Shown here: piece after piece, positions 22,459-64,000 of the stretch | Layout of the letters: each line of letters starts with the position of its first letter | Position numbering within the stretch: the first letter of the stretch is position 1 | Assembly (NCBI GenBank): GCA_002450835.1 | Contig: DKAM01000030.1 | Coordinates: 63,688 to 127,687 of the forward strand | Reading direction: 5' to 3' | Length of the DNA: 64,000 bases | Source of the DNA: Dehalococcoidia bacterium UBA6926 | GTDB taxonomy: Bacteria; Chloroflexota; Dehalococcoidia; UBA6926 | Translations under genes and position numbers: made by a program | Notes under the pieces: generated by a model | Databases searched by the model: none | Told to the model about the DNA's origin: nothing | Seen by the model: only the letters and a program-made list of their open reading frames with translations

Positions 22459-22546
22459 GGAGAGGTGGCCGAGCGGTTTAAGGCGTCGCTCTCGAAAAGC
22501 GGAGTCTCCTTATCGGGGACCGTGGGTTCGAATCCCACCCTCTCCG
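22459..22546 (+). tRNA. tRNA-Ser (anticodon CGA), class II with long variable arm
   Basis: Manual fold gives acceptor GGAGAGG/CCTCTCC, anticodon loop CTCGAAA, and T-loop GTGGGTTCGAATCCCAC. Confidence 0.8.
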
Positions 22547-22547
22547 C

Positions 22548-22639
22548 GGAGAGATGCTGGAGTGGCTGAACAGGCACGCCTGGAAAGCGTGTAGAGTCTG
22601 TAAGGGCTCTCGCGGGTTCGAATCCCGCTCTCTCCGCCA
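22548..22639 (+). tRNA. tRNA-Ser (anticodon GGA), class II, CCA encoded
   Basis: Acceptor GGAGAGA/TCTCTCC, anticodon loop CTGGAAA, T-arm GCGGGTTCGAATCCCGC. Lies 1 nt after the previous tRNA. Confidence 0.8.
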
Positions 22640-45442: not shown

Positions 45443-45517
45443 TGGAGCCCACAACCAGACTTGAACTGGTGACCTCGTTCTTACCAAGAACGTGCTCTAC
45501 CGCTGAGCTATGTGGGC
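45443..45517 (-). tRNA. tRNA-Thr (anticodon GGU)
   Basis: Manual fold of the minus strand gives acceptor GCCCACA/TGTGGGC, anticodon loop TTGGTAA, T-arm ACCAGTTCAAGTCTGGT, and CCA encoded. Confidence 0.8.
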
Positions 45518-45586
45518 CCGCTTAAATCTAATAAATCCGATAAAAATTTTGTTCTTTACGGGTACACCAGTAAATCAACATTCTCT

Positions 45587-45662
45587 TGGAGCCCGAGAGG
45601 GGATTCGAACCCGCTAACCTGCCGATTACAAATCGGCTGCGCTACCATTGCGCCACTCGGGC
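45587..45662 (-). tRNA. tRNA-Thr (anticodon UGU)
   Basis: Acceptor GCCCGAG/CTCGGGC, D-arm GCGCAATGGTAGCGC, anticodon loop TTTGTAA, short variable loop so not Tyr. One C-C mismatch in the T-stem. Confidence 0.7.
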
Positions 45663-53517: not shown

Positions 53518-53994
53518 TCATCGATTTTTAGCAGAATAATATTGGTACCAAATGATTCCCAATATCCATTCAACGTTTATAGGGCCTAAAACCCTGCTAT
53601 CAGTACTGTTGTTGTAATTGTCGCCAAGAACGAAATATTCGTCCTTTTTTAGAGTCCATTTCTGGACATTTGACCTATCGCCTTTATCTGACAAGCTTAC
53701 CTTCCCATAATCAACATCATTGATTAAAAAAGCGTTGGAAGATAATTGCACTACGTCCTCAGGCGTCGCAACAATTCGTTTCACATAATAGAGGTTGGTC
53801 AATGGGTGGTGGAAAAATATCACATCATCATTCTTAAGATTAATCATTCTATATTTAGACTTAGTAGCCAAAAACATATCCCCATCAAACATAGATGGCT
53901 CCATGCTAGACCCTGAAATTCTAACTCTTGAAGAAAAAACTATGTCTGTAAATAATTTGATGACTTGAGATAGATAGAATAATATATTGTGCAT
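53518..53994 (-). CDS. sodX: S26 signal-peptidase-like protein, probable NiSOD maturation peptidase SodX
   Basis: S26 motifs (GSSMEPS, YVKRIVATPED, GDNYNNSTDSR) with an N-terminal anchor. Divergently adjacent to sodN. Confidence 0.7.
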   Translation of the reverse strand: MHNILFYLSQVIKLFTDIVFSSRVRISGSSMEPSMFDGDMFLATKSKYRMINLKNDDVIFFHHPLTNLYYVKRIVATPEDVVQLSSNAFLINDVDYGKVSLSDKGDRSNVQKWTLKKDEYFVLGDNYNNSTDSRVLGPINVEWILGIIWYQYYSAKNR

Positions 53995-54132
53995 GTCACC
54001 ACTATATACTGATACACAACTATGGGCGCCTTTTGGCTTTGATATTTTCCCCTATTGAGTTGCGATCAGGCTCACTGGTGGTGTAAACTCGCACCGGTCT
54101 ACAATCAAAACCGTCGGCTACAGGGAGGGAAA

Positions 54133-54627
54133 ATGTCAACCAGTAAATATTTAATATCTTTGGTGGAAAAAATATCACCTGCTCGTATCGGATACGCACA
54201 CTGTGATATACCATGCGGGATTTATGATCCCCATCAAGCTCAAATAGCTGCTTTGAGTGTGATAAGGATGGTTCAATTAATCGAAGACTTGGATGATTCC
54301 AATTCAGCAGAAAATCAAAACAAGTTATCAAGGTTTATAGCGGTTAAAGAAGAAAGTGCGGAACAAGCTAAAAGCGAACTCCGCGTTCTTTGGGGTGATT
54401 ACTTTAAACCAGAACATCTGGAAGAATATCCAGATTTACATAACCTGTTTTTCTCTGCCATGAAGCAAGGATCACAAGTGAGACAATCGGTCAACTTACA
54501 AGCAGCGGAAACATTCCTTGCAACAGTTCAAGATATCGCAGAAATTTTCTGGAAAACTAAAGGAGCAAACCCTAGTAGGCAACCTTCCAGACAAGCTGTA
54601 GGCGGGGAAATCGTTTATCCGGGATAA
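54133..54627 (+). CDS. sodN: nickel-containing superoxide dismutase precursor (NiSOD)
   Basis: Ni-hook HCDIPCGIYDP sits right after a 22-aa propeptide (MSTSKYLISLVEKISPARIGYA). GGGAGGG RBS before ATG 54133. Confidence 0.85.
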   Translation: MSTSKYLISLVEKISPARIGYAHCDIPCGIYDPHQAQIAALSVIRMVQLIEDLDDSNSAENQNKLSRFIAVKEESAEQAKSELRVLWGDYFKPEHLEEYPDLHNLFFSAMKQGSQVRQSVNLQAAETFLATVQDIAEIFWKTKGANPSRQPSRQAVGGEIVYPG

Positions 54628-54839
54628 CAGGATAAAGAACATTTAAAGACGCCTTTAGCGTTCGGTATTCTTAGCTGATATGGAATGCTAAAGGCGCATA
54701 AGTTCGGTGGTTTGCTAAAAGCAAAAAAACTTCTCTAATATTACAAATTCTTAAAGAATACCTTCGCTCCATTCCGTATTAGAATCGAAAAATCTGATCT
54801 TATAGAGCAACCTATCAAGACCAAACGATTCTCTATCCT

Positions 54840-55331
54840 TCACGGATATCCCAAATCCACGGAATATGCGGGCTGACTGTAAACATTACCAGTTTCTCCA
54901 AGATACCAGCCATATTGGCCACTTGGGGCATTGGTAGCGGAAGAGTTTTTTATTGAATCGGCAGAGCGAATTACTGCAGAGTCCGTCAAAGATCCTGTGA
55001 GAACCATTTTTTCGAAATCCAACCAAGAGCAAATTTCTCCAATGTCAGAGTCATCACATTGATATCCTTGAATGTTCCCCTCGACGGGAAAACCTACAGA
55101 CCCAGACAAGGTAGGCAACTGGGATAATGGAAATATGTTTTCTTTATGTTGCTCCACAGCCCTTTGAAGTGCTTGCTGGTCGGCGGTATAGGCTCTTTGC
55201 TCAAATTTTGAGATAATAAAAGGTAAAACAATAAAACCCATTATTAAACCACCTATAAGAATAATCATTACAAAAATTATATCGTTACGAATCTTATTAA
55301 TTAGGGGATACGGGGAAGGCTTATACATCAA
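54840..55331 (-). CDS. hypothetical membrane-anchored protein (single N-terminal TM, Cys-containing extracytoplasmic domain)
   Basis: Hydrophobic segment IIFVMIILIGGLIMGFIVLPFII. No family recognisable by eye. Confidence 0.4.
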   Translation of the reverse strand: MMYKPSPYPLINKIRNDIIFVMIILIGGLIMGFIVLPFIISKFEQRAYTADQQALQRAVEQHKENIFPLSQLPTLSGSVGFPVEGNIQGYQCDDSDIGEICSWLDFEKMVLTGSLTDSAVIRSADSIKNSSATNAPSGQYGWYLGETGNVYSQPAYSVDLGYP

Positions 55332-55353
55332 ATTATAGTCCTGGAAATGCTTC

Positions 55354-55581
55354 CTACTCGTTTTTATGTATCTCTAAGCTCTCTCCAGGTCGAAGAGCCA
55401 CTCTTCTGACGCTGACATTATACTTCAGAAGCCAGTACCAAAGAGTACCTTTACTAATACCCAACTCTTCAGACATTCCTGGTAAACCAAGTTCATTATA
55501 CAAATCTGGCAAGACCTCTTCTAATGGTCTCCCATATTTGCTTTCCACTTGTTTCATTAAACGAGTCTTTTGCCGAGCCAC
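55354..55581 (-). CDS. small helix-turn-helix protein, putative transcriptional regulator
   Basis: 75 aa. ELGLPGMSEELGISKGTLWYWLLKYNV resembles an HTH. Lies upstream of, and same-strand as, the membrane-protein gene. Confidence 0.4.
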   Translation of the reverse strand: MARQKTRLMKQVESKYGRPLEEVLPDLYNELGLPGMSEELGISKGTLWYWLLKYNVSVRRVALRPGESLEIHKNE

Positions 55582-55769
55582 CGAACCTCCAATTGCGCAA
55601 ACGAACCTTATTGATTAATCTTAAAGACATAATATAAGCAAGAGACACATTTTAAACCAAATTTAAACTAAATACTAGAATATGGTTTCTGTACATAAAA
55701 TAGCGAGCGATTTAATACAAATCTTAAGAATTATTTGTATATAATTATCGAATAAAGGAGTGGGGTTAT

Positions 55770-56249
55770 ATGGGGTCTAATTGGCTAACTTCAGTGAGGA
55801 AAAACCATGCCGTAGAGCATGCTACTATATCCATTCTTGGTCGTAATCTAGATAAATATGGCCAGTTCGGTGGAAGCTCAAACGGCAATGGTTATTACAT
55901 TTTTGGCCCTGCGACCAAAGAAAATATTTTGGACGCCAGCACTGAAGCAATTGGTCGGCTAAATTTAGGGGAGCATCAACTAGCTATATCACCTTTTTGT
56001 GGCACCAATTTTCTTTTAGGTGGCGCTGTAGCAACACTGACAACCGGCGCAATTCTGGGGAAAAAAAATAGACTTGCAAAAATTCCCGAAGCGATTGGAT
56101 TATCAGTCTTAGGTCTTGTTGGAGCTTTTCGATTAGGATCGATTGCGCAAAGAAAATGGACTACTATGGCTGAAATCGGTAACCTAACAATAGCCTCTAT
56201 AGAAGAAATAAACGAAGGTTTATATAGGGTTAACACTAATATTGATTAG
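55770..56249 (+). CDS. hypothetical protein with an NHAVEHA motif (distantly DUF1385/YqhQ-like?)
   Basis: 159 aa with hydrophobic Gly-rich segments. Family uncertain. Confidence 0.35.
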   Translation: MGSNWLTSVRKNHAVEHATISILGRNLDKYGQFGGSSNGNGYYIFGPATKENILDASTEAIGRLNLGEHQLAISPFCGTNFLLGGAVATLTTGAILGKKNRLAKIPEAIGLSVLGLVGAFRLGSIAQRKWTTMAEIGNLTIASIEEINEGLYRVNTNID

Positions 56250-56257
56250 CTTCACTA

Positions 56258-56334
56258 GTCCCTGTAGCTCAATTGGATAGAGCAGCTGATTTCTAATCAG
56301 CAGGTTCCGGGTTCGAGTCCCGGCAGGGGCGCCA
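56258..56334 (+). tRNA. tRNA-Arg (anticodon UCU), CCA encoded
   Basis: Acceptor GTCCCTG/CAGGGGC (one G-U pair), D-arm GCTCAATTGGATAGAGC, anticodon loop TTTCTAA, T-arm CCGGGTTCGAGTCCCGG. Confidence 0.8.
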
Positions 56335-56371
56335 GCACACAAGCTAGTTCTTAGAGAACTAGCCTTCTACT

Positions 56372-57583
56372 CTACTCAGAATAATCAGAATCGATGACTC
56401 CATTTTCGATAAGGTCATTAATCTTTTCTAGAGAATATTTAGCTATGTTTACTAATACTTCCTCGGTGTGTTCGCCTAAATCCGGTGCGGGACCCAAGCT
56501 GTCTGGCGAAGTCCTAGAAAATTTAAAGGGTGTATTAACGACGGGTACTGGTTCAATCCTCTTATGCGGAACCTTCACAATGGTATTTCTATGTTTGATT
56601 TGCGGGTCATCTACGACACGGTCAATAGTATTTACCGGACCGCAAGCAATACCCAAATCACTAAAGGTTTTTAACCAGTGCTCTGCAGTGTTACCGCTGA
56701 TCGCTTCTTGTAAGACAGGAATTAAAGCTTCATAGTTTAAAGTTCTACTGTGCCCATCAACATACCTAGGGTCATCGATTAGCTCAACCTTTTCTATAGC
56801 AGAGCAAAAAAGCGGCCATTGATCGTTAACTCCACCCACTATCGCAACCACAATCCAAGCATCCTTTGACTTAAATGCTTGAAATGGCGTGAATGAAGGA
56901 TGCCGAGTTCCTATAGGTCCTGGTATGTCGCCTGTAGAGTAATAACGCCCTACTGCCGCTTCTAAAGTCGCAACCTGGCTATCTAGCATCGATAAATCAA
57001 TAAATTGTCCTTTTCCAGATCTCTCCCTTTCATAAACTGCGGATAAAATCCCTGTGGCTGAAAACAATCCTGCCACAATATCCCCTAGGGAGGATCCAGG
57101 TCGTACGGGACCCCCTCCCTGCTCACCAGTGATACTCATAATCCCACCCATAGCTTGGACGATAATATCCAAAGCGGGTTTATCAGAATAAGGTCCAGTT
57201 TGCCCAAATCCGGAGATAGAGCAATAAATTACTCTCTCATTAATCTCAGAAAGCGTTCCATAGTCCAAACCAAATTTCTTCATAGCTCCAGGGACAAAAT
57301 TTTCGATAAGAATGTCGCACTCTGGTATTAAATCTTTAATTACTTGTGCGCCTTCAGGAGAGGACAAATCAACAGTAACGCTCTTCTTTCCTCTATTTAC
57401 ACTAATAAAATAATAACTCTCTCCCTGTATAAAAGGGGCTGTACCTCTGGACAAGTCGCCACCCTCTGGACGTTCGATTTTTACCACTTCGGCACCTAGG
57501 TCCGCAAACATCATCGTAGTAAAAGGACCAGACAAAATCCGAGTTAAGTCCAAGACTCTTAATCCGCTTAAAGGGCCACCCAT
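56372..57583 (-). CDS. family III CoA-transferase (CaiB/BaiF/formyl-CoA transferase family)
   Basis: LSGLRVLDLTRILSGPFTTMMFADLGAEVVKIERP N-terminus and a conserved catalytic Asp region. I chose ATG 57583 because it is preceded by GGAGGAAG. Confidence 0.85.
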   Translation of the reverse strand: MGGPLSGLRVLDLTRILSGPFTTMMFADLGAEVVKIERPEGGDLSRGTAPFIQGESYYFISVNRGKKSVTVDLSSPEGAQVIKDLIPECDILIENFVPGAMKKFGLDYGTLSEINERVIYCSISGFGQTGPYSDKPALDIIVQAMGGIMSITGEQGGGPVRPGSSLGDIVAGLFSATGILSAVYERERSGKGQFIDLSMLDSQVATLEAAVGRYYSTGDIPGPIGTRHPSFTPFQAFKSKDAWIVVAIVGGVNDQWPLFCSAIEKVELIDDPRYVDGHSRTLNYEALIPVLQEAISGNTAEHWLKTFSDLGIACGPVNTIDRVVDDPQIKHRNTIVKVPHKRIEPVPVVNTPFKFSRTSPDSLGPAPDLGEHTEEVLVNIAKYSLEKINDLIENGVIDSDYSE

Positions 57584-57750
57584 CGATCTTCCTCCATCTT
57601 TCATTCTACTGTTATCATTGTATCTTCGTTAGAAAAGATATGCTGGCAAAAAAAGCTATGTTTGTAGGGATATCGAGTACTTTAAATAATCGTAGGTATT
57701 TTTTGATTATTGGCAATAGAACAACTTAATAGTGAGAAGGGTTCGACAAT

Positions 57751-58113
57751 ATGGATAAAATAGGGCTTACGGGCATGACTTTCTATGGAAGACATGGAGC
57801 AACCCAGGAAGAAAAAGCTTCTCCTCAGGAATTTATTGTAGATATAGAAATTCTGAAAGATTTACAAAAATCAGGAAATACAGATAACTTGGATGATACG
57901 ATCGACTACTCCAAGGTGTATATGGTAATAAAATCTATCATAGAAGAGACGTCTTTTAATTTAATTGAAGGTATTTCTGATGCGATTGCTACAAAAATCC
58001 TGGATACGTTTCATGTCCATAAAGTAATTATTAAAGTAACAAAATCCAATGCTCCAATGGGGGATAACCATCAAAATGCGTGGGTAGAAATAACAAGAGA
58101 ACAAGGTAACTAA
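57751..58113 (+). CDS. folB: dihydroneopterin aldolase
   Basis: 120 aa. GLTGMTFYGRHGATQEEK...IVDIEI FolB motifs. Confidence 0.85.
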   Translation: MDKIGLTGMTFYGRHGATQEEKASPQEFIVDIEILKDLQKSGNTDNLDDTIDYSKVYMVIKSIIEETSFNLIEGISDAIATKILDTFHVHKVIIKVTKSNAPMGDNHQNAWVEITREQGN

Positions 58114-58158
58114 TAACAATTTTGACAGCTATATTAAGTTACTCGAAAAATATGAGAT

Positions 58159-58605
58159 TCAAGATCCTGTAGAACCAAAACCACCCGAACCCCTCTTGGT
58201 TTCCGTTAGTTCATCAGTTGTAACTTGGATATCAACATCAGCCAAATGGTTAAAGATAATTTGGGCAATTCGATCACCCTCTTGGATCTTGTAATTTTGA
58301 TTTGCCTTCAACGTATACATTGTGACGAAAATTTCTCCCCTATAATCAGAATCAATCGTACCTAAAGGTCCAATTACCCCTTTGAGCGTTAACCCCGATC
58401 GAGGCCTTATTTGGGCGTCAATACCAAATGGAACTTCTATTGCTATGCCAGTAGGAACTCTTATAGGATCGTTACCTATTTCAATGTAATCTTCACCTTC
58501 ACCCAAGCAAGCAAAAATATCGAATCCTGAAGCTCCTTTTGTGGCTTTCTTAGGCACAATTGCCGACATACGTAAAAGTTTTATAGCTATTTTTGTTTCG
58601 TCCAA
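58159..58605 (-). CDS. dut: dUTP diphosphatase
   Basis: dUTPase motifs (ASGFDI, RPRSGL, GTIDSDYRGEI, GDRIAQ). Confidence 0.9.
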   Translation of the reverse strand: MDETKIAIKLLRMSAIVPKKATKGASGFDIFACLGEGEDYIEIGNDPIRVPTGIAIEVPFGIDAQIRPRSGLTLKGVIGPLGTIDSDYRGEIFVTMYTLKANQNYKIQEGDRIAQIIFNHLADVDIQVTTDELTETKRGSGGFGSTGS

Positions 58606-58654
58606 AGAAATATCCCTCGCCTATGAGCTTGTTAAAGGATTTTATTGTATACCA

Positions 58655-59917
58655 TCAATTTAGTAGATCTTTGTGGATCACATCCCACTGTCTAGAGTCA
58701 ACAACATTTTTCCAAGATACTGGGAGTAGATCAGGTAAGCCTAATAACCCTTTAAGTATAGGTGCTAAACCAACCAAAATCCCGAACATTTTAGAAGGAT
58801 AGTCTATATCACCATAATTATTAATTTTTGACCGAAAAAGAGGAAGGCGGAAAATATCCATAAGCCTATTCAGTTTATCATCGCCTAAACCTAAATATAC
58901 CTGCCTTATATCTAAGCCGCGCTGCATCTCCTGCCCAAAATCTTCTGTCCAATTTTTTTGATAAACACTAAGAGATTCATTATCCAGCGAATCTTCATCT
59001 AAATTCTCATTTATTGCCTGCGCCGCGTAGGAAGCAGCCTTTAAACTCGTGTATATTCCCCCGCCGCTCGTGGGTTTAACTTGAAGCGCAGCATCACCTA
59101 CTAATAAAGCACGGTCATCGTAGGTAGACGATGCACTATACAAAGGAATGAAGCCCCCGCCGAAAGAAATAATTTCAATACCCTTAAAATGTTCAGGAAA
59201 CTCATTTAAAAGGTCATTCAATAATTTTCGAGGTTTTAAAGATGTGCTATGCATGGCCGCCCCGATACCTATCCTCACTCGGTTAGTTCCAGTAGGTATT
59301 GACCAACCAAACCACCCTGGAGCCAAATCTTGGGAAGCATAAATTCTGACCATGTCCATCGGATGACCCTCTAATCTTGCTTCCGCCCCAATGCACCATA
59401 TCATTTCTCCAGAATCTCTTCCGAGATCTTTTGCAACTATCGATCGAACACCATCCGCACCAACAACACATCGAGCAAGATACTTTATTGGTTTTTTGTC
59501 ATGAATAGCCAATACCTCGACAAAAGAGTCTTTCCTTTGAACAGAAACAACTTTGTTATTCATCTTAAAGGATGCGCCGGAATCACCAGAAGAACTGGCT
59601 ATGGACTTATCAAACAACTCTCTGTCCACGACCACTGCTCGCTCAATATCACCACCTAATATTAGTGGTTTTGCTTTATTATTTGAATAAACTAAAGCTC
59701 CTTTAACAGAGTTCATGACGATACTAGATTCAATTTGTGCAATATCAAGAGTTCTCGGCGTTATAAATCCAGAACAATGAACAGGAAACCCGACCTCTTG
59801 ATGTTCTTCAAGAACGATCACGGAATGGCCACGCTCTGATAGTAAAGCAGCTGTCCTGGCTCCTGCCGGGCCAGCGCCAACAACAATTACGTCCGCGTCG
59901 AAGTTGTATCCCATCAA
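58655..59917 (-). CDS. FAD-dependent oxidoreductase, geranylgeranyl reductase family
   Basis: N-terminal dinucleotide fold DVIVVGAGPAGARTAALLSERGHSVIVLEE and a GDAAL segment. Confidence 0.75.
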   Translation of the reverse strand: MMGYNFDADVIVVGAGPAGARTAALLSERGHSVIVLEEHQEVGFPVHCSGFITPRTLDIAQIESSIVMNSVKGALVYSNNKAKPLILGGDIERAVVVDRELFDKSIASSSGDSGASFKMNNKVVSVQRKDSFVEVLAIHDKKPIKYLARCVVGADGVRSIVAKDLGRDSGEMIWCIGAEARLEGHPMDMVRIYASQDLAPGWFGWSIPTGTNRVRIGIGAAMHSTSLKPRKLLNDLLNEFPEHFKGIEIISFGGGFIPLYSASSTYDDRALLVGDAALQVKPTSGGGIYTSLKAASYAAQAINENLDEDSLDNESLSVYQKNWTEDFGQEMQRGLDIRQVYLGLGDDKLNRLMDIFRLPLFRSKINNYGDIDYPSKMFGILVGLAPILKGLLGLPDLLPVSWKNVVDSRQWDVIHKDLLN

Positions 59918-60001
59918 TCCCCAACTCCGTTCAATAATTAACAGAAAAACCGGACAATACGATCATTATCTTTGATCTAAATTCCACCATCAGGATGTTT
60001 T

Positions 60002-61018
60002 CTACGGGACGAGGACTACTTTACCTACAGCCTCATCATCTTCTACTATCCTTTGGCCTTCTCCTCCATCTTTCGTCGGAAGAACACTATGAATAACAGG
60101 TTTGATATATCCAGCCTGCACAGCATCAAGAGACTCCTGAAGATGGAAAACGGTACCCAGTGTAGAGCCCACAAGCTCGACTTCTCTGAAGAATATATGT
60201 CTGAGGTCTATCTGGCCTTCATACCCACTAGTAGCTCCACTAGTCACCACAATTCCGTTCCAAGAAGCCATCTGAACACTCAAGCCCATTGTGGCCTGAC
60301 CTGGATGCTCGAAAACAATATCAACTCCTCGTCGCCCGACGATATTCCGTACTTCTTTTCTGACGTCTTGAGTATTTCTATTGATTACGTGGTCTGCACC
60401 AATTTGCTTACAAAGTTCCAGTTTTTCGTCTGAAGAAGCTACCGCTATTACGTCTGCTCTAAACATTTTAGCGATTTGAATTGCCATTACTCCCAATCCG
60501 CCAGCTGCACCCCAAACCAATACAGTATCCCCAGGTTTTATACGAGCTTTATGAACGAGCTTGCGCCATGCAGTGACTAAAACCAGTGGCAATGATGCAG
60601 CCCCTTCAAAATCTAAATTGGTAGGCTTAGGTGCCAGATTTTCACTAGGAACGCAGACATACTCTCCATGAGCACCATCAAGAGCAGGCCAATCATATCC
60701 CCATATATTGTACTGTTGACCTTCTCCTTCTTTGTTACCTCGAGCAGGTCGTCCGCAATGAACTACAACTTCGTCACCAATTTTAACATCGGTAACTGCA
60801 TCACCAATTTGGGTGACTATACCTGCAGCATCACTTCCAGAAATATGCGGCAAAGGAACTTCCTGAGGTGCCCCTCTCCTTCCCCAAATATCATTGTAGT
60901 TAACTGCAGACGCTTTTACTTCAACAACTGCGTCGTTAGGACCTGGTTCTGGGTCAGGAACATCTTTCCATTCAAGAACCTCTGGGCCACCATATTTTTC
61001 AAAGACCAAAGCCTTCAT
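60002..61018 (-). CDS. MDR-superfamily NAD(P)H-dependent oxidoreductase (quinone oxidoreductase/enoyl reductase-like, zinc-independent)
   Basis: MKALVFEKYGGPEVLEW, Rossmann GAAGGLG, no catalytic zinc Cys/His. AAGGAGA RBS. Confidence 0.75.
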   Translation of the reverse strand: MKALVFEKYGGPEVLEWKDVPDPEPGPNDAVVEVKASAVNYNDIWGRRGAPQEVPLPHISGSDAAGIVTQIGDAVTDVKIGDEVVVHCGRPARGNKEGEGQQYNIWGYDWPALDGAHGEYVCVPSENLAPKPTNLDFEGAASLPLVLVTAWRKLVHKARIKPGDTVLVWGAAGGLGVMAIQIAKMFRADVIAVASSDEKLELCKQIGADHVINRNTQDVRKEVRNIVGRRGVDIVFEHPGQATMGLSVQMASWNGIVVTSGATSGYEGQIDLRHIFFREVELVGSTLGTVFHLQESLDAVQAGYIKPVIHSVLPTKDGGEGQRIVEDDEAVGKVVLVP

Positions 61019-61174
61019 AGTTTTTCTCCTTAATAAAAGTTAATGATACGACGATATGCGATAAATTTTACCCCATGCATCCATCTAGAAGACTGTAGCA
61101 TAAGCTTTCTATTTGTATCAACCAGTTTTAGATATTTTATTGCAATTTTCAAAGAGGGCGTCGTAAACCGTCGT

Positions 61175-62065
61175 TTACGGCGCTCGATCAGGACGCTTCA
61201 TCTGTGCCTGTGCTATCGCATCTTCCTCAGTATACCCATCGTTCATAAACTGAAAACCTGCGCGCATACCTTCTTCTGCCGTTACACGATTAACATCTTG
61301 AATACCGTGAGGAAGTGCCTCTGGAGATGCAGAGTAGGATGCCCACATGAGATTATCTGCAAATTCTAATGACTGGAACATCCCTTGGGCTTCATAATAA
61401 TGATTTATTGCACGTTTGTTTAACCGCGTCGATGCGGGAGGAAGTTTTGATATCGTGTTCGCTAATTTCCATACTTCTTCATCTAAATCTTCCCTACCGA
61501 CAACTTCACTTACCAGTCCTACTCTCAATGCTTCCTGAGCGTCCATCATATTCCCTGTAAACGCTAACTGCTTTGCTTTTTTCATGCCGACTAGTTCTGG
61601 CCAGATCATATTAGTCGCTATACTAGCATATCTAGCAGGCGGATACCCAAACAACGCATCCTCCGACGCTATTGTTATATCACAATGCAATGCCAGTTGC
61701 CCGCCTCCAGCCAATGTAAAAGAATGAACCTGTGCTATAACTGGTTTGGGATTATTCCACATCCAATCGATAAAAACTGAAGTTCCATCGGGTCGTTCAG
61801 TTATCATAGTGACCGCATCCCTATTTGGAGAACCTTGCGACTGCACATTCATGTCGTAGCCAGCGGAAAACGCTCTCCCTGCGCCTTTAATAACGATACA
61901 GCGAACGTTATCATCTTTCGCACCAGCCTCTAGGGCATCACCCAATTCTACAAGAAGCGCCTTACTTAAAGCATTCAGCCTCTCTGGACGATTTAATGTG
62001 ACATATGCTACGCCCCCACCGGCTCCTTCCCTAACTTCGTAAATAATATTTTCATATTCTGCCAT
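61175..62065 (-). CDS. enoyl-CoA hydratase/isomerase (crotonase) family protein, paralog 1
   Basis: Crotonase core (VIKGAGRAFSAGYDM, FTLAGGGQLALHCDITIA, GYPPARYAS) with a ~40-aa C-terminal extension ending KRPDRAP. Confidence 0.85.
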   Translation of the reverse strand: MAEYENIIYEVREGAGGGVAYVTLNRPERLNALSKALLVELGDALEAGAKDDNVRCIVIKGAGRAFSAGYDMNVQSQGSPNRDAVTMITERPDGTSVFIDWMWNNPKPVIAQVHSFTLAGGGQLALHCDITIASEDALFGYPPARYASIATNMIWPELVGMKKAKQLAFTGNMMDAQEALRVGLVSEVVGREDLDEEVWKLANTISKLPPASTRLNKRAINHYYEAQGMFQSLEFADNLMWASYSASPEALPHGIQDVNRVTAEEGMRAGFQFMNDGYTEEDAIAQAQMKRPDRAP

Positions 62066-62130
62066 CTTAAATAACCCTGCCTTTCACGACTCATTTATTG
62101 ATAGATCCTTGTCTGACTCAAAAACGGTTT

Positions 62131-63021
62131 TTATGGAGCTCGATCGGGTCTTTTCATTTGGCCTCGCGCTATTGCATCTTCGTCCGTATATGCCTCATTC
62201 ATATATTGGAATCCTGCACGCATCCCTTCTTTTTCTGTAACACGGTCGACGTCTTGCATACCATGTGGAAGGGCCTCCGGAGACGCCGAGTAAGACGCAT
62301 ACATCAAGTTTTCAGCAAACTCAAATGACTGGAACATTCCTTGGGCTTCATAATAATGATTTATTGCACGCTTATTCAATCGAGTAGAGGCAGGAGGTAG
62401 TTTTGATATTGTGTTCGCTAGTTTCCAAACCTCTTCATCCAAGTCTTCACGTTTAACAATCTCGCTTATTAGTCCTACTCTCAATGCATCCTGAGCATCC
62501 ATCATATTGCCTGTAAAGGCTAGCTGCTTTGCTTTTTTCATACCCACTAATTCCGGCCAAATCATGTATGTAGCAACGCTTGCATACCTTGCCGGAGGGT
62601 ACCCAAATAACGCATCCTCTGAAGCTATTGTTATATCACAATGGGAAGCTACCTGCCCTCCCCCAGCCAGAGTAAAAGAATGAACCTGCGCTATGACTGG
62701 CTTGGGGTTATTCCAAATCCAACGTTGATACATTTCAGTGGGATCAGGGCGATTATTTATCATTGTAACCGCGTCCCTTGAGAGAGCACCTTGCGACTGC
62801 ACATTCATGTCGTAGCCAGCAGAAAACGCCCTACCCGCGCCTTTAATAACGATACAAAGAACGTTATTATCTTTAGCACTTGCCTCCAATGCGTCCCCTA
62901 ATTCTGACAGAAGCTTCCGGCTCAAAGCATTCAATCTCTCCGGGCGATTCAATGTGATATATGCTATACCCCCGCCAGCTCCTTCTATAACTTCATAAAT
63001 GATGTCCTCATAGTCAGTCAT
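62131..63021 (-). CDS. enoyl-CoA hydratase/isomerase (crotonase) family protein, paralog 2
   Basis: About 85% identical to paralog 1 and about 82% to paralog 3, with the same C-terminal extension. Confidence 0.85.
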   Translation of the reverse strand: MTDYEDIIYEVIEGAGGGIAYITLNRPERLNALSRKLLSELGDALEASAKDNNVLCIVIKGAGRAFSAGYDMNVQSQGALSRDAVTMINNRPDPTEMYQRWIWNNPKPVIAQVHSFTLAGGGQVASHCDITIASEDALFGYPPARYASVATYMIWPELVGMKKAKQLAFTGNMMDAQDALRVGLISEIVKREDLDEEVWKLANTISKLPPASTRLNKRAINHYYEAQGMFQSFEFAENLMYASYSASPEALPHGMQDVDRVTEKEGMRAGFQYMNEAYTDEDAIARGQMKRPDRAP

Positions 63022-63083
63022 CTCAATGTACCCACCTTTTCACAGATACCGTATTTCAGAACCTAAGACCTGATTTGATGAAG

Positions 63084-63974
63084 TTACGGAGCTCTGTCAG
63101 GGCGCTTCATTTGGGCTTGCGCTATTGCATCTTCGTCCGTATATGCCTCATTCATATATTGGAATCCTGCGCGCATTCCCTGTTCTTCAGTAACACGATC
63201 AACATCCTGCAACCCGTGTGGCAGTGCCTCGGGAGATGCAGAGTAGGATGCGTACATCAAATTCTCTGCGAACTCAAATGACTGGAACATCCCTTGAGAT
63301 TCATAATAGTGATTTATTGCACGTTTGTTTAAACGGGTTGATGCCGGAGGAAGTTTTGATATTGTATTTGCTAGGTTCCATACCTGTTCATCTAAATCAC
63401 CTGCAGGAACAACTTCACTCACTAGTCCAAGCCTCAGTGCTTCTTCCGCATTTATCATGTTACCTGTAAACGCCAGCTGCTTTGCTTTTTTCATACCGAC
63501 TAATTCTGGCCAAATCATGTAGGAAGCCACACTCGCATATCTTGCCGGCGGATAACCAAATAAGGCATCGTCTGCGGCAATTGTAATATCACAATGGCAC
63601 GCGAGTTGTCCTCCACCAGCTAAAGTAAATGAATGAACTTGTGCTATAACGGGCTTGGGATTATTCCAAATCGATCGCCTATACATTGCTGTAGGAATAT
63701 TATCAGCGTTGATCATAGTAATAGCATCTCTTGGAAGAGCACCTTGTGACTGTACATTCATATCATAACCAGCTGAAAACGCTCTACCCGCACCTTTAAT
63801 TACAATGCAACGCACATTTTCGTCCTTAGCCGCATTTTCCAAGGCATCACCAACTTCGGCTAATAAATCGCGGCTTAGAGCATTCAGGCGCTCAGGGCGG
63901 TTCAGAATTATATAACCAATTCCTCCGCCAGCTCCCTCTCTAACCTCATATATAATATCTTGATAATCTGCCAT
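63084..63974 (-). CDS. enoyl-CoA hydratase/isomerase (crotonase) family protein, paralog 3
   Basis: Start set at MADYQD (GAGGTGAGGGGGG RBS); the upstream ATG lies inside the RBS. Confidence 0.85.
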   Translation of the reverse strand: MADYQDIIYEVREGAGGGIGYIILNRPERLNALSRDLLAEVGDALENAAKDENVRCIVIKGAGRAFSAGYDMNVQSQGALPRDAITMINADNIPTAMYRRSIWNNPKPVIAQVHSFTLAGGGQLACHCDITIAADDALFGYPPARYASVASYMIWPELVGMKKAKQLAFTGNMINAEEALRLGLVSEVVPAGDLDEQVWNLANTISKLPPASTRLNKRAINHYYESQGMFQSFEFAENLMYASYSASPEALPHGLQDVDRVTEEQGMRAGFQYMNEAYTDEDAIAQAQMKRPDRAP

Positions 63975-64000
63975 TTCTTTTACCCCCCTCACCTCATATA

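Follow-up and report, generated by a model that had tools for sequence, protein, structure and literature searches.

A lineage-specific tandem triplet of atypical crotonase genes in marine Dehalococcoidia, with divergence concentrated in a putative substrate specificity loop

We analyzed a stretch of 64,000 nucleotides (hereafter, the window) of Dehalococcoidia bacterium UBA6926 (GenBank assembly GCA_002450835.1, contig DKAM01000030.1, positions 63,688 to 127,687 of the forward strand) and detected, at its end, three head-to-tail open reading frames (ORFs) of 296 codons, all on the minus strand, that encode crotonases, i.e., proteins of the enoyl-CoA hydratase/isomerase family (CoA, coenzyme A). 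They are called here c1, c2, and c3, from the downstream to the upstream copy. All three match the Pfam model ECH_1 (PF00378) at 152–155 bits (cut-off 27), they follow each other with a repeat period of 956 and 953 nt, and the repeated unit includes flanking non-coding sequence, as in a tandem array. No further enoyl-CoA hydratase (ECH) genes besides these three were found within the window, and the public annotation of their proteins is "enoyl-CoA hydratase/isomerase family protein". The array consists of the following features.

61175–62065, minus strand: ORF of c1, the downstream copy, 296 amino acids (aa), ECH_1 155 bits, loop GSPNRDAVTMITERPDGTSVFIDWMW
61757–61834, minus strand: codons 78–103 of c1, the variable segment, from the translation and the alignment to rat ECH residues 105–124
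62066–62130, minus strand: c2–c1 spacer of 65 nt, with a sequence resembling a ribosome-binding site, GAAAGGCAGGG, ahead of the c1 ATG
62131–63021, minus strand: ORF of c2, the middle copy, 296 aa, ECH_1 152 bits, loop GALSRDAVTMINNRPDPTEMYQRWIW
62713–62790, minus strand: codons 78–103 of c2, the variable segment, placed by the same translation and alignment to rat ECH 105–124
63022–63083, minus strand: c3–c2 spacer of 62 nt, with a sequence resembling a ribosome-binding site, AAAAGGTGGG, ahead of the c2 ATG
63084–63974, minus strand: ORF of c3, the upstream copy, 296 aa when read from its ATG (63974), loop GALPRDAITMINADNIPTAMYRRSIW
63666–63743, minus strand: codons 78–103 of c3, the variable segment, likewise from the translation and the alignment to rat ECH 105–124

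The ATG of c3, located 26 nt from the window edge, is preceded by a Shine-Dalgarno-like run, GAGGTGAGGGGGG, and the alternative listed start, a GTG at 63992, would add six residues without a counterpart in c1, c2, or any homolog. A preliminary description of this DNA, made from the sequence alone, had already recognized the three consecutive 296-aa paralogs, the position of the c3 start, and a conserved C-terminal extension, and these observations are borne out; all three copies retain the tail motif QM.RP.R.P, as do homologs with as little as ~48% identity. The protein identity of 82–85% given in that description was accurate at its upper end, the measured pairwise range being 80.4–85.1% (75.3–78.6% at the nucleotide level). 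The long, nearly identical nucleotide stretches that it reported between c2 and c3 were not found, as these two genes are 77% identical overall, with 89% in the best 100-nt segment and a longest identical run of 52 nt, which is also the longest in-register run common to any two copies. The two spacers share a motif close to the ribosome-binding site, a consensus scan found no terminator-like hairpin in either of them, and the region's best promoter-like match was located beyond the window end, immediately upstream of c3. Co-transcription of c3, c2, and c1 is plausible and probably occurs. The GC content at third codon positions is 0.34–0.40 in c1–c3, as in the neighboring genes; a horizontal acquisition of the array was considered and rejected in the absence of any compositional sign.

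Genes for a protein identical to c2 are present on 18 marine metagenome contigs from independent samples (among these, Tara Oceans samples, JGI 3300020477, and, with a 665-kb contig, ERZ6778701), and the c3-c2-c1 array was seen on every contig of this set that is long enough. Three of them (L001, L002, and L003), retrieved together with 10 kb on either side, match the last 10 kb of the window (54001–64000) at 100% identity. This identity over 10 kb across three metagenome projects (Tara Oceans, ERZ6778701, and JGI 3300020477) also points to a widely sampled, near-identical population at this locus. Past the window edge, upstream of c3, the contigs that match the window at 100% carry a NUDIX gene, a 272-aa crotonase gene, and then uvrC, so that the array, which had been suspected of running on beyond the window, ends there at three copies.

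The active site of the three proteins differs from that of canonical enoyl-CoA hydratases (EC 4.2.1.17). In two independent alignments, one by HMMER to PDB 4K29 and one by MAFFT to rat mitochondrial ECH (whose sequence was checked against PDB 1DUB, with 100% identity and a numbering offset of +29), Gln123 stands in place of the first catalytic glutamate, Glu144, and Pro143, within the motif G-Y-P-P-A-R-Y, in place of the second, Glu164, in c1, c2, and c3. Both glutamates have been reported to be conserved in all ECH enzymes (PMC6048173), and the alanine substitution of either of them abolishes the activity of the hydratase AcuH (PMC5651017). Since both are replaced, the reaction of c1–c3 is probably not canonical enoyl-CoA hydration, and the three proteins, implicitly taken for ordinary enoyl-CoA hydratases before, probably do not belong with these; the catalytic core, which had been called conserved, is so between the copies, but without the canonical hydratase glutamates. 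Among 42 members of the subfamily (≥48% identity), only Q, H, or N occurs at position 123 and only P at position 143, Tyr70 is invariant, and the pair of glutamates is regained in homologs more distant than that.

The oxyanion-hole positions (rat Ala98 and Gly141), in turn, align at the sequence level to Tyr70 in F-S-A-G-Y-D and to Gly120 in A-G-G-G, and 80 homologs show no variation at F66, G69, and D71. As these motifs are intact, c1–c3 would be CoA-thioester enzymes that stabilize an oxyanion and use other acid/base residues, for which the invariant His114, Arg145, and Asp71 are candidates, and the reaction may be another oxyanion-stabilized one, e.g., isomerization, decarboxylation, or C–C hydrolysis. 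None of the NCBIfam models compared (hydratase, MenB, BadI, PaaF/PaaG, EchA19, and others) is reached at or above its cut-off, the best scores being 179–187 bits for PRK08272 (cut-off 257) and 175–179 bits for PRK08290 (cut-off 280). A ring-forming or ring-hydrolyzing crotonase of the MenB/BadI/EchA20 type was rejected as the scores are far under the cut-offs, with 115–126 bits against 343–380 for MenB and 109–114 against 468 for BadI.

The nearest genome records are marine Dehalococcoidia metagenome-assembled genomes. One of them, LRMED-148, with ~86% nucleotide identity over the locus, carries all three genes as one-to-one orthologs of c1, c2, and c3 (97%, 95%, and 98.6% amino-acid identity, respectively). 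In L012 (OZ250138.1, a more distant genome) and in L014 (72% identity), a single gene of 29x aa lies at the syntenic locus, while L013, L016, and L017 have a single copy in other gene contexts. In a neighbor-joining tree, c1–c3 are monophyletic among the single-copy lineages, they have in common an insertion of one residue in the loop and six derived columns with respect to nine single-copy outgroups, and c3 is the copy most similar to the single-copy ortholog of L012 (8001–8891, 80%). The single copies in syntenic relatives, the monophyly, and the shared derived columns together show that the triplication is specific to the lineage that holds the window genome and LRMED-148.

The triplication had been described as recent, and this is contradicted by the synonymous divergence. 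Between the paralogs, the proportion of synonymous differences (pS) is 0.66–0.73, the Jukes-Cantor synonymous distance (dS) is 1.6–2.8, i.e., saturated, and the nonsynonymous distance (dN) is 0.09–0.13. Between the orthologs of the window genome and LRMED-148, dS is only 0.31–0.57, and the ratio of dN to dS (omega) is 0.027 for c1, 0.068 for c2, and 0.019 for c3. The saturated synonymous sites and the ortholog triplet in LRMED-148 imply that the triplication is old and predates the species-level split, and all three copies are kept by strong purifying selection. The low synonymous divergence and the sister species without the duplication that a recent event would leave were thus not found.

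The 52-nt run shared by c2 and c3 corresponds to two tracts.

62166–62217, minus strand: tract in c2 (gene nt 805–856), identical to that of c3
63119–63170, minus strand: matching tract in c3, identical to that of c2

In LRMED-148, c2 and c3 are also identical over gene nt 805–856, and sites 849 and 855 differ between the two genomes and not within either of them. This concerted behavior in both genomes indicates local gene conversion between c2 and c3. A chimeric origin of c2 by unequal crossing-over (5' part like c1, 3' part like c3) was considered as well and rejected. The maximal chi-square test gave p=0.07 for amino acids, which is not significant, and p=0.005 for nucleotides. Outgroup polarization showed that most states shared by c2 and c3 are ancestral, with c1 derived, and that in residues 134–226 most states shared by c1 and c2 are ancestral, with c3 derived, and because of this, asymmetric evolution together with the short c2/c3 conversion tract accounts better for the chimera-like pattern. 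Hybrid-looking population variants were also observed, i.e., a c1 with a c3-like stretch at 226–280, a c3 with a c2-like stretch at 174–264, and a c2 with a c3-like stretch at 174–255. In the hybrids P0132, P0159, and P0002, all on contigs of ≤1.7 kb, the loop stays paralog-specific; they could be real recombinants or assembly chimeras, and the contig of P0002 (L020) has an in-frame stop codon. A further hybrid, P0020, with its breakpoint inside the loop, lies on a 1465-nt contig (L019) with a different gene context.

The differences between the three copies cluster in residues 78–103, in agreement with the single variable segment of ~25 residues noted in the preliminary description. In this segment, 17 of the 26 columns vary, compared to 51 of the 270 in the rest of the protein (odds ratio 8.1, Fisher p=1.4e-6), and on permutation of the 68 variable columns, 17 fell in any 26-residue stretch in at most 1 of 5000 trials (p=2e-4). 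Since the split from LRMED-148, the same codons have hardly changed in protein sequence, with 0, 1, and 0 nonsynonymous and 4, 5, and 1 synonymous differences in c1, c2, and c3, respectively. With nine single-copy outgroups as a reference, the loop contains 16 of the 49 fixed paralog differences, compared to 1 of the 27 columns in which a change followed the species split (p=0.0035). Among population variants (12, 9, and 11 distinct full-length sequences of c1, c2, and c3, 32 in total), 30, 32, and 33 columns vary, of which 0, 4, and 4 are in the loop, the c1 loop being the same in all 12 variants. The loop thus holds 8 of the 95 polymorphic columns (8.4%, close to its 8.8% share of the protein length), compared to 33% of the fixed differences (p=6e-4). 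After duplication, the loop went through a burst of change, and its constraint since then equals that of the remaining protein, which argues against simple relaxed constraint.

This change was unequal among the copies. Unambiguous derived changes number 15 in c1 (6 of them in the loop), 2 in c2, and 3 in c3, and the loop of c3 is the closest to the single-copy consensus G.LPRDA.TMI..DHPT.MYR.WIW. The motif MY(R/K)(R/K), kept in single-copy homologs down to ~63% identity, is replaced by VFID in c1 (MYRR to VFID). Therefore, c1 is the most derived paralog, c3 is the nearest to the single-copy ancestral state, and c2 is intermediate.

The variable segment is bracketed by the conserved anchors FSAGYD and KPVIAQV (FAAGAD and KPVIAAV in rat ECH) and aligns to residues ~105–124 of rat ECH in the MAFFT family alignment, with 34 residues between the anchors in the window proteins and 26 in rat ECH, i.e., 8 extra. 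In ECH, a substrate specificity loop (112–121) and a helix cover the acyl-tail pocket (PMC13126182), and the conformation of the α3 helix or helix-loop-helix, together with pocket residues, has been concluded to determine specificity across ECH enzymes (PMC6048173). Residues 78–103 would, based on this alignment, be the counterpart of the helix-loop-helix specificity loop over the acyl-tail pocket. An AlphaFold2 (AF2) model built with an 80-sequence homolog alignment (mean predicted local distance difference test, pLDDT, 90.6; predicted template-modeling score, pTM, 0.90) has helices predicted at 84–89 and 94–103, and its pLDDT is lower at residues 71–100 (55 for 71–80 and 83 for 81–100). All 50 listed Foldseek matches in the PDB are crotonase-fold proteins, the best being 4k29 (TM-score 0.82/0.90, root-mean-square deviation, rmsd, 2.2 Å), in keeping with the ββα-spiral fold of crotonases.

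The entry 4K29, an enoyl-CoA hydratase/isomerase of Xanthobacter autotrophicus Py2, is both the best structural match and the best sequence match (E=1e-43, residues 4–278), with an identity to the window proteins of only 33%. The rmsd of 2.2 Å to 4K29 contrasts with 11–17 Å to the rat, human, and Mycobacterium tuberculosis ECH, which suggests that in the predicted model the C-terminal helices are placed as in 4K29 and not as in canonical ECH. On the other hand, 4K29 keeps both glutamates (GACE and GEPE, where the window proteins have GGGQ and GYPP) and lacks the last ~18 tail residues of the window proteins. The rat and human ECHS1 proteins (1DUB and 2DUB) have the crotonase fold and the oxyanion motifs in common with them (FAAGAD in rat for FSAGYD, and GGG), but the identity is 28–29%, with the window proteins outside the canonical hydratase family, and the window protein exceeds the mature rat ECH (261 aa) by 35 residues, with the extra sequence after the shared C-terminal helices. 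The second-best PDB matches (E ~1e-34), the mycobacterial 3OME and 3T3W ("probable enoyl-CoA hydratase", PRK08290-like), also lack the two glutamates when aligned (GGLL and SDPV), and they differ by an identity of ~30–35% and by AGHD instead of AGYD.

Based on these results, we favor, with moderate confidence, an old and lineage-specific tandem triplication of an atypical crotonase gene, in which divergence was focused on the specificity loop and each copy was conserved thereafter. The single 29x-aa crotonase of a conserved cassette was duplicated twice in the lineage of the window genome, probably by unequal crossing-over of a unit of ~955 nt that included the ribosome-binding site of the gene. 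Early change was concentrated in residues 78–103, most of all in c1, after which each paralog, loop included, remained under strong purifying selection, with small gene-conversion tracts still swapping sequence outside the loop. The conserved oxyanion hole (backbone NH of Tyr70 and Gly120) would serve all three proteins in binding CoA thioesters, but the acyl groups accepted would differ among them, and VFID in place of MY(R/K)(R/K) in c1 could point to a lost contact with an anionic or polar group of the substrate. The three genes, probably co-transcribed, would probably feed the neighboring reductase. The core idea of the preliminary description, a diversification of substrate specificity after duplication, is upheld in that the segment aligns to the ECH specificity loop, its sites are fixed within and different between the paralogs, and omega is 0.02–0.07.

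Several points weigh against this interpretation. The single-copy state of the relatives refers to 6–8 kb around the locus, the mapping of the loop is made through an alignment across a gapped region and a predicted model, with contact to the acyl group assigned by homology, and co-transcription is deduced from two features only, the short spacers and their lack of terminator-like hairpins. In the contrast of variation within and between paralogs, the clusters were set by overall identity and the variants come partly from short contigs, and the saturated dS precludes a valid test for dN/dS > 1 on the post-duplication branches. Besides, the loop is the fastest-evolving segment also among presumed single-copy orthologs, with an identity that averages 0.77 in non-paralog pairs of 85–90% identity outside the loop, and the c2–c3 loop identity of 0.65 falls within this background. 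Only the pairs with c1 fall outside, as the loop identities of c1–c2 (0.54) and c1–c3 (0.35) are below the minimum of 0.58 among the 66 non-paralog pairs of the 85–90% bin; c1–c2 belongs to this bin, and c1–c3, with 84.8% outside the loop, belongs to the 80–85% bin and is below its minimum of 0.54 as well.

This background variability would also be expected if the copies were redundant, retained for dosage or drifting neutrally, all with the same job, and if the loop differed as a weakly constrained, flexible surface element, to which the lowest AF2 confidence, at residues 71–100, could be added. We consider this explanation unlikely. The loop is constrained within each paralog, both between species and, for c1, across all its population variants, and it is underrepresented among polymorphic columns with respect to fixed ones. 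Moreover, c1 replaces a motif that single-copy homologs conserve, and pure dosage copies would be expected to be homogenized by conversion or lost while dS saturates.

Alternatively, the paralogs could co-assemble as obligate subunits of a mixed crotonase trimer or hexamer, some of them possibly non-catalytic. Crotonases form trimers and hexamers in which the C-terminal helix of a neighbor lies over the active site (PMC5651017; PMC13126182), the three genes are adjacent, of equal length, and probably co-transcribed, the canonical catalytic residues are missing in all three products, and the PDB entries 2pbp and 2ej5 are named "enoyl-CoA hydratase subunit I" and "subunit II". Against such heteromers, which we find improbable, the differences concentrate in the pocket-covering loop, and no second cluster was seen (the trimer interface was not mapped). 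As the relatives carry a single gene at the syntenic locus, the ancestral protein probably functions with no paralog as a partner, and all three copies keep the same residues that are invariant in the subfamily.

A recent duplication with ongoing diversifying selection on the loop would fit the protein identity of 80–85% and the identical 52-nt tract of c2 and c3, but it is very hard to reconcile with a paralog pS that exceeds the ortholog dS of two species that both have the three copies, with the tract as a local conversion that is concerted in both genomes, and with a loop that is static within each paralog. Finally, an assembly artefact, i.e., a collapsed or falsely expanded repeat, which the preliminary description had named as its possible refutation, is scarcely credible, even if tandem repeats are a known assembly hazard and the short-contig hybrids P0002, P0132, and P0159 could be chimeras, as the array is found in 18 contigs of different samples, whose naming styles suggest different assemblers, and in the LRMED-148 genome, whose name suggests a long-read assembly, and as the copies are only 75–79% identical, with no longer shared in-register run than 52 nt, and each has its own ortholog in a second species.

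The short-chain and long-chain ECH enzymes Ms3HPCD, CaCRT, and LiuC, distinguished by their α3 helix, are a precedent for sequence and indel changes in the same region that reset acyl specificity, a two-residue indel being reported to separate the two types (PMC6048173); c1–c3 have a one-residue insertion with respect to single-copy relatives. Those enzymes are true hydratases of different organisms, and not tandem paralogs. The 21-member EchA set of M. tuberculosis consists of scattered paralogs, unlike the tandem array of the window, and one of them, EchA20, is a ring hydrolase, an example of a crotonase paralog with a non-hydratase role (PMC5380842). In SAR202 and other marine Dehalococcoidia, expansions of paralogs (flavin monooxygenases, the enolase superfamily, and CaiB/BaiF CoA-transferases) have been proposed to broaden the substrate range (PMC5395668, PMC10444878). 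They come from the same bacterial class and habitat as the window genome and follow the same proposed logic, but they are ancient, comprise tens to ~100 genes, and are for the most part dispersed. Neither PMC5395668 nor PMC10444878 mentions crotonases, and a literature search on SAR202 and enoyl-CoA found no paper describing crotonase paralogs.

The genes that adjoin the array were typed within the window and on contig L001, where position x corresponds to window position 73022-x.

60002–61018, minus strand: reductase of the medium-chain dehydrogenase/reductase (MDR) family, 338 aa, resembling Ccr and enoyl-thioester reductases (Pfam ADH_N and ADH_zinc_N)
L001 7618–8436, beyond the window end: ECH of 272 aa, 35–39% identical to c1–c3
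L001 8459–8971, beyond the window end: NUDIX hydrolase of 170 aa, with an N-terminal zinc-ribbon-like Cys motif read from the sequence

The 272-aa crotonase has Asn at the position of Glu144 and keeps the equivalent of Glu164 (GEPE). The MDR reductase is located downstream of c1 across a spacer of 156 nt, and its score of 258 bits against TIGR01751 is under the cut-off of 379 for Ccr; its best PDB match is the Thermus entry 2eih, followed by crotonyl-CoA reductases/carboxylases at E ~1e-48. It is probably a pathway partner of the crotonases. In the single-copy cassette, the order is UvrC, a 27x-aa ECH, NUDIX, the 29x-aa ECH, and the MDR reductase; in L014, where the gene order was typed with Pfam, the reductase comes next after the 29x-aa ECH, and in L012, a 344-aa ORF was assigned to the MDR position by ORF layout alone. 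The conservation of this cassette in the single-copy L014, and likewise in L012 by ORF layout, suggests that it is a functional unit. Four plus-strand ORFs of 83–126 aa that are antisense to the crotonase and MDR genes (61043–61369, 63218–63469, 60053–60433, and 60668–61033), all of which have strong family matches, were treated as spurious, with no library search aimed at these ORFs.

After the MDR reductase follow a flavoprotein of the geranylgeranyl-reductase family, a dUTPase, FolB, and a family III CoA-transferase, a single-domain protein of 410 aa whose gene lies 3.6 kb from the array within the window. The flavoprotein gene (58655–59917, minus strand), two genes downstream of the array, scores 224 bits with TIGR02032 (cut-off 159), has sub-threshold similarity to archaeal digeranylgeranylglycerophospholipid reductases, and is not at this position in L014. 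In L016, a 1.72-Mb relative, the single-copy ortholog (65% identical) is next to an 805-aa protein (L016 7088–9505) with a CoA_transf_3 match, and its length, ~2 times that of the 410-aa enzyme of the window, suggests a tandem-domain fusion; this neighbor is a further link of the crotonase subfamily with CoA-transferases. Considering the marine setting and the neighboring genes, a dimethylsulfoniopropionate (DMSP)/acrylate pathway (AcuH or DmdD hydratase, AcuI reductase, and DddD-like CoA-transferase) was evaluated for the crotonases and rejected, as these lack the catalytic glutamates and the AcuI score is only 50 bits (cut-off 440).

Farther away in the window, a nickel superoxide dismutase gene (Sod_Ni, 54055–54627, plus strand) adjoins one for an S26-family peptidase (53518–53994, minus strand), as annotated on the identical contigs. 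Transfer RNA (tRNA) genes were also observed, namely two abutting tRNA-Ser genes (CGA and GGA; 22459–22639, plus strand), a tRNA-Thr pair (GGT and TGT; 45443–45662, minus strand) ~70 nt apart, and a tRNA-Arg gene (TCT; 56258–56334, plus strand) beside a DUF6391 gene (55770–56249).

As a tentative and rather speculative proposal, the 296-aa proteins could represent an uncharacterized crotonase subfamily (invariant Tyr70; Gln, His, or Asn at 123; Pro143; Arg145; His114; and a conserved basic C-terminal tail) that catalyzes, in place of hydration, a different oxyanion-hole reaction on CoA esters whose source is marine dissolved organic matter. The triplet would then be a small specificity panel, in which c1 was re-tooled through the charge-altering change of MYRR to VFID for a chemically different acyl group, with the products passing to the Ccr-like reductase.

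That a specificity loop diverges once its gene has been duplicated is well known as a pattern, and this locus leaves the current understanding unchallenged. If our interpretation holds, the locus would be a compact natural experiment in abundant and largely uncultured ocean bacteria, as it offers an ancestral-like c3, an intermediate c2, and a strongly re-tooled c1, with single-copy orthologs as the pre-duplication reference. These graded copies and references would make the specificity-determining residues directly testable by loop swaps. In addition, this crotonase subfamily is publicly annotated as "enoyl-CoA hydratase" although it lacks both catalytic glutamates, and thus any metabolic reconstruction of marine Dehalococcoidia in which its genes figure as β-oxidation hydratases is probably wrong.

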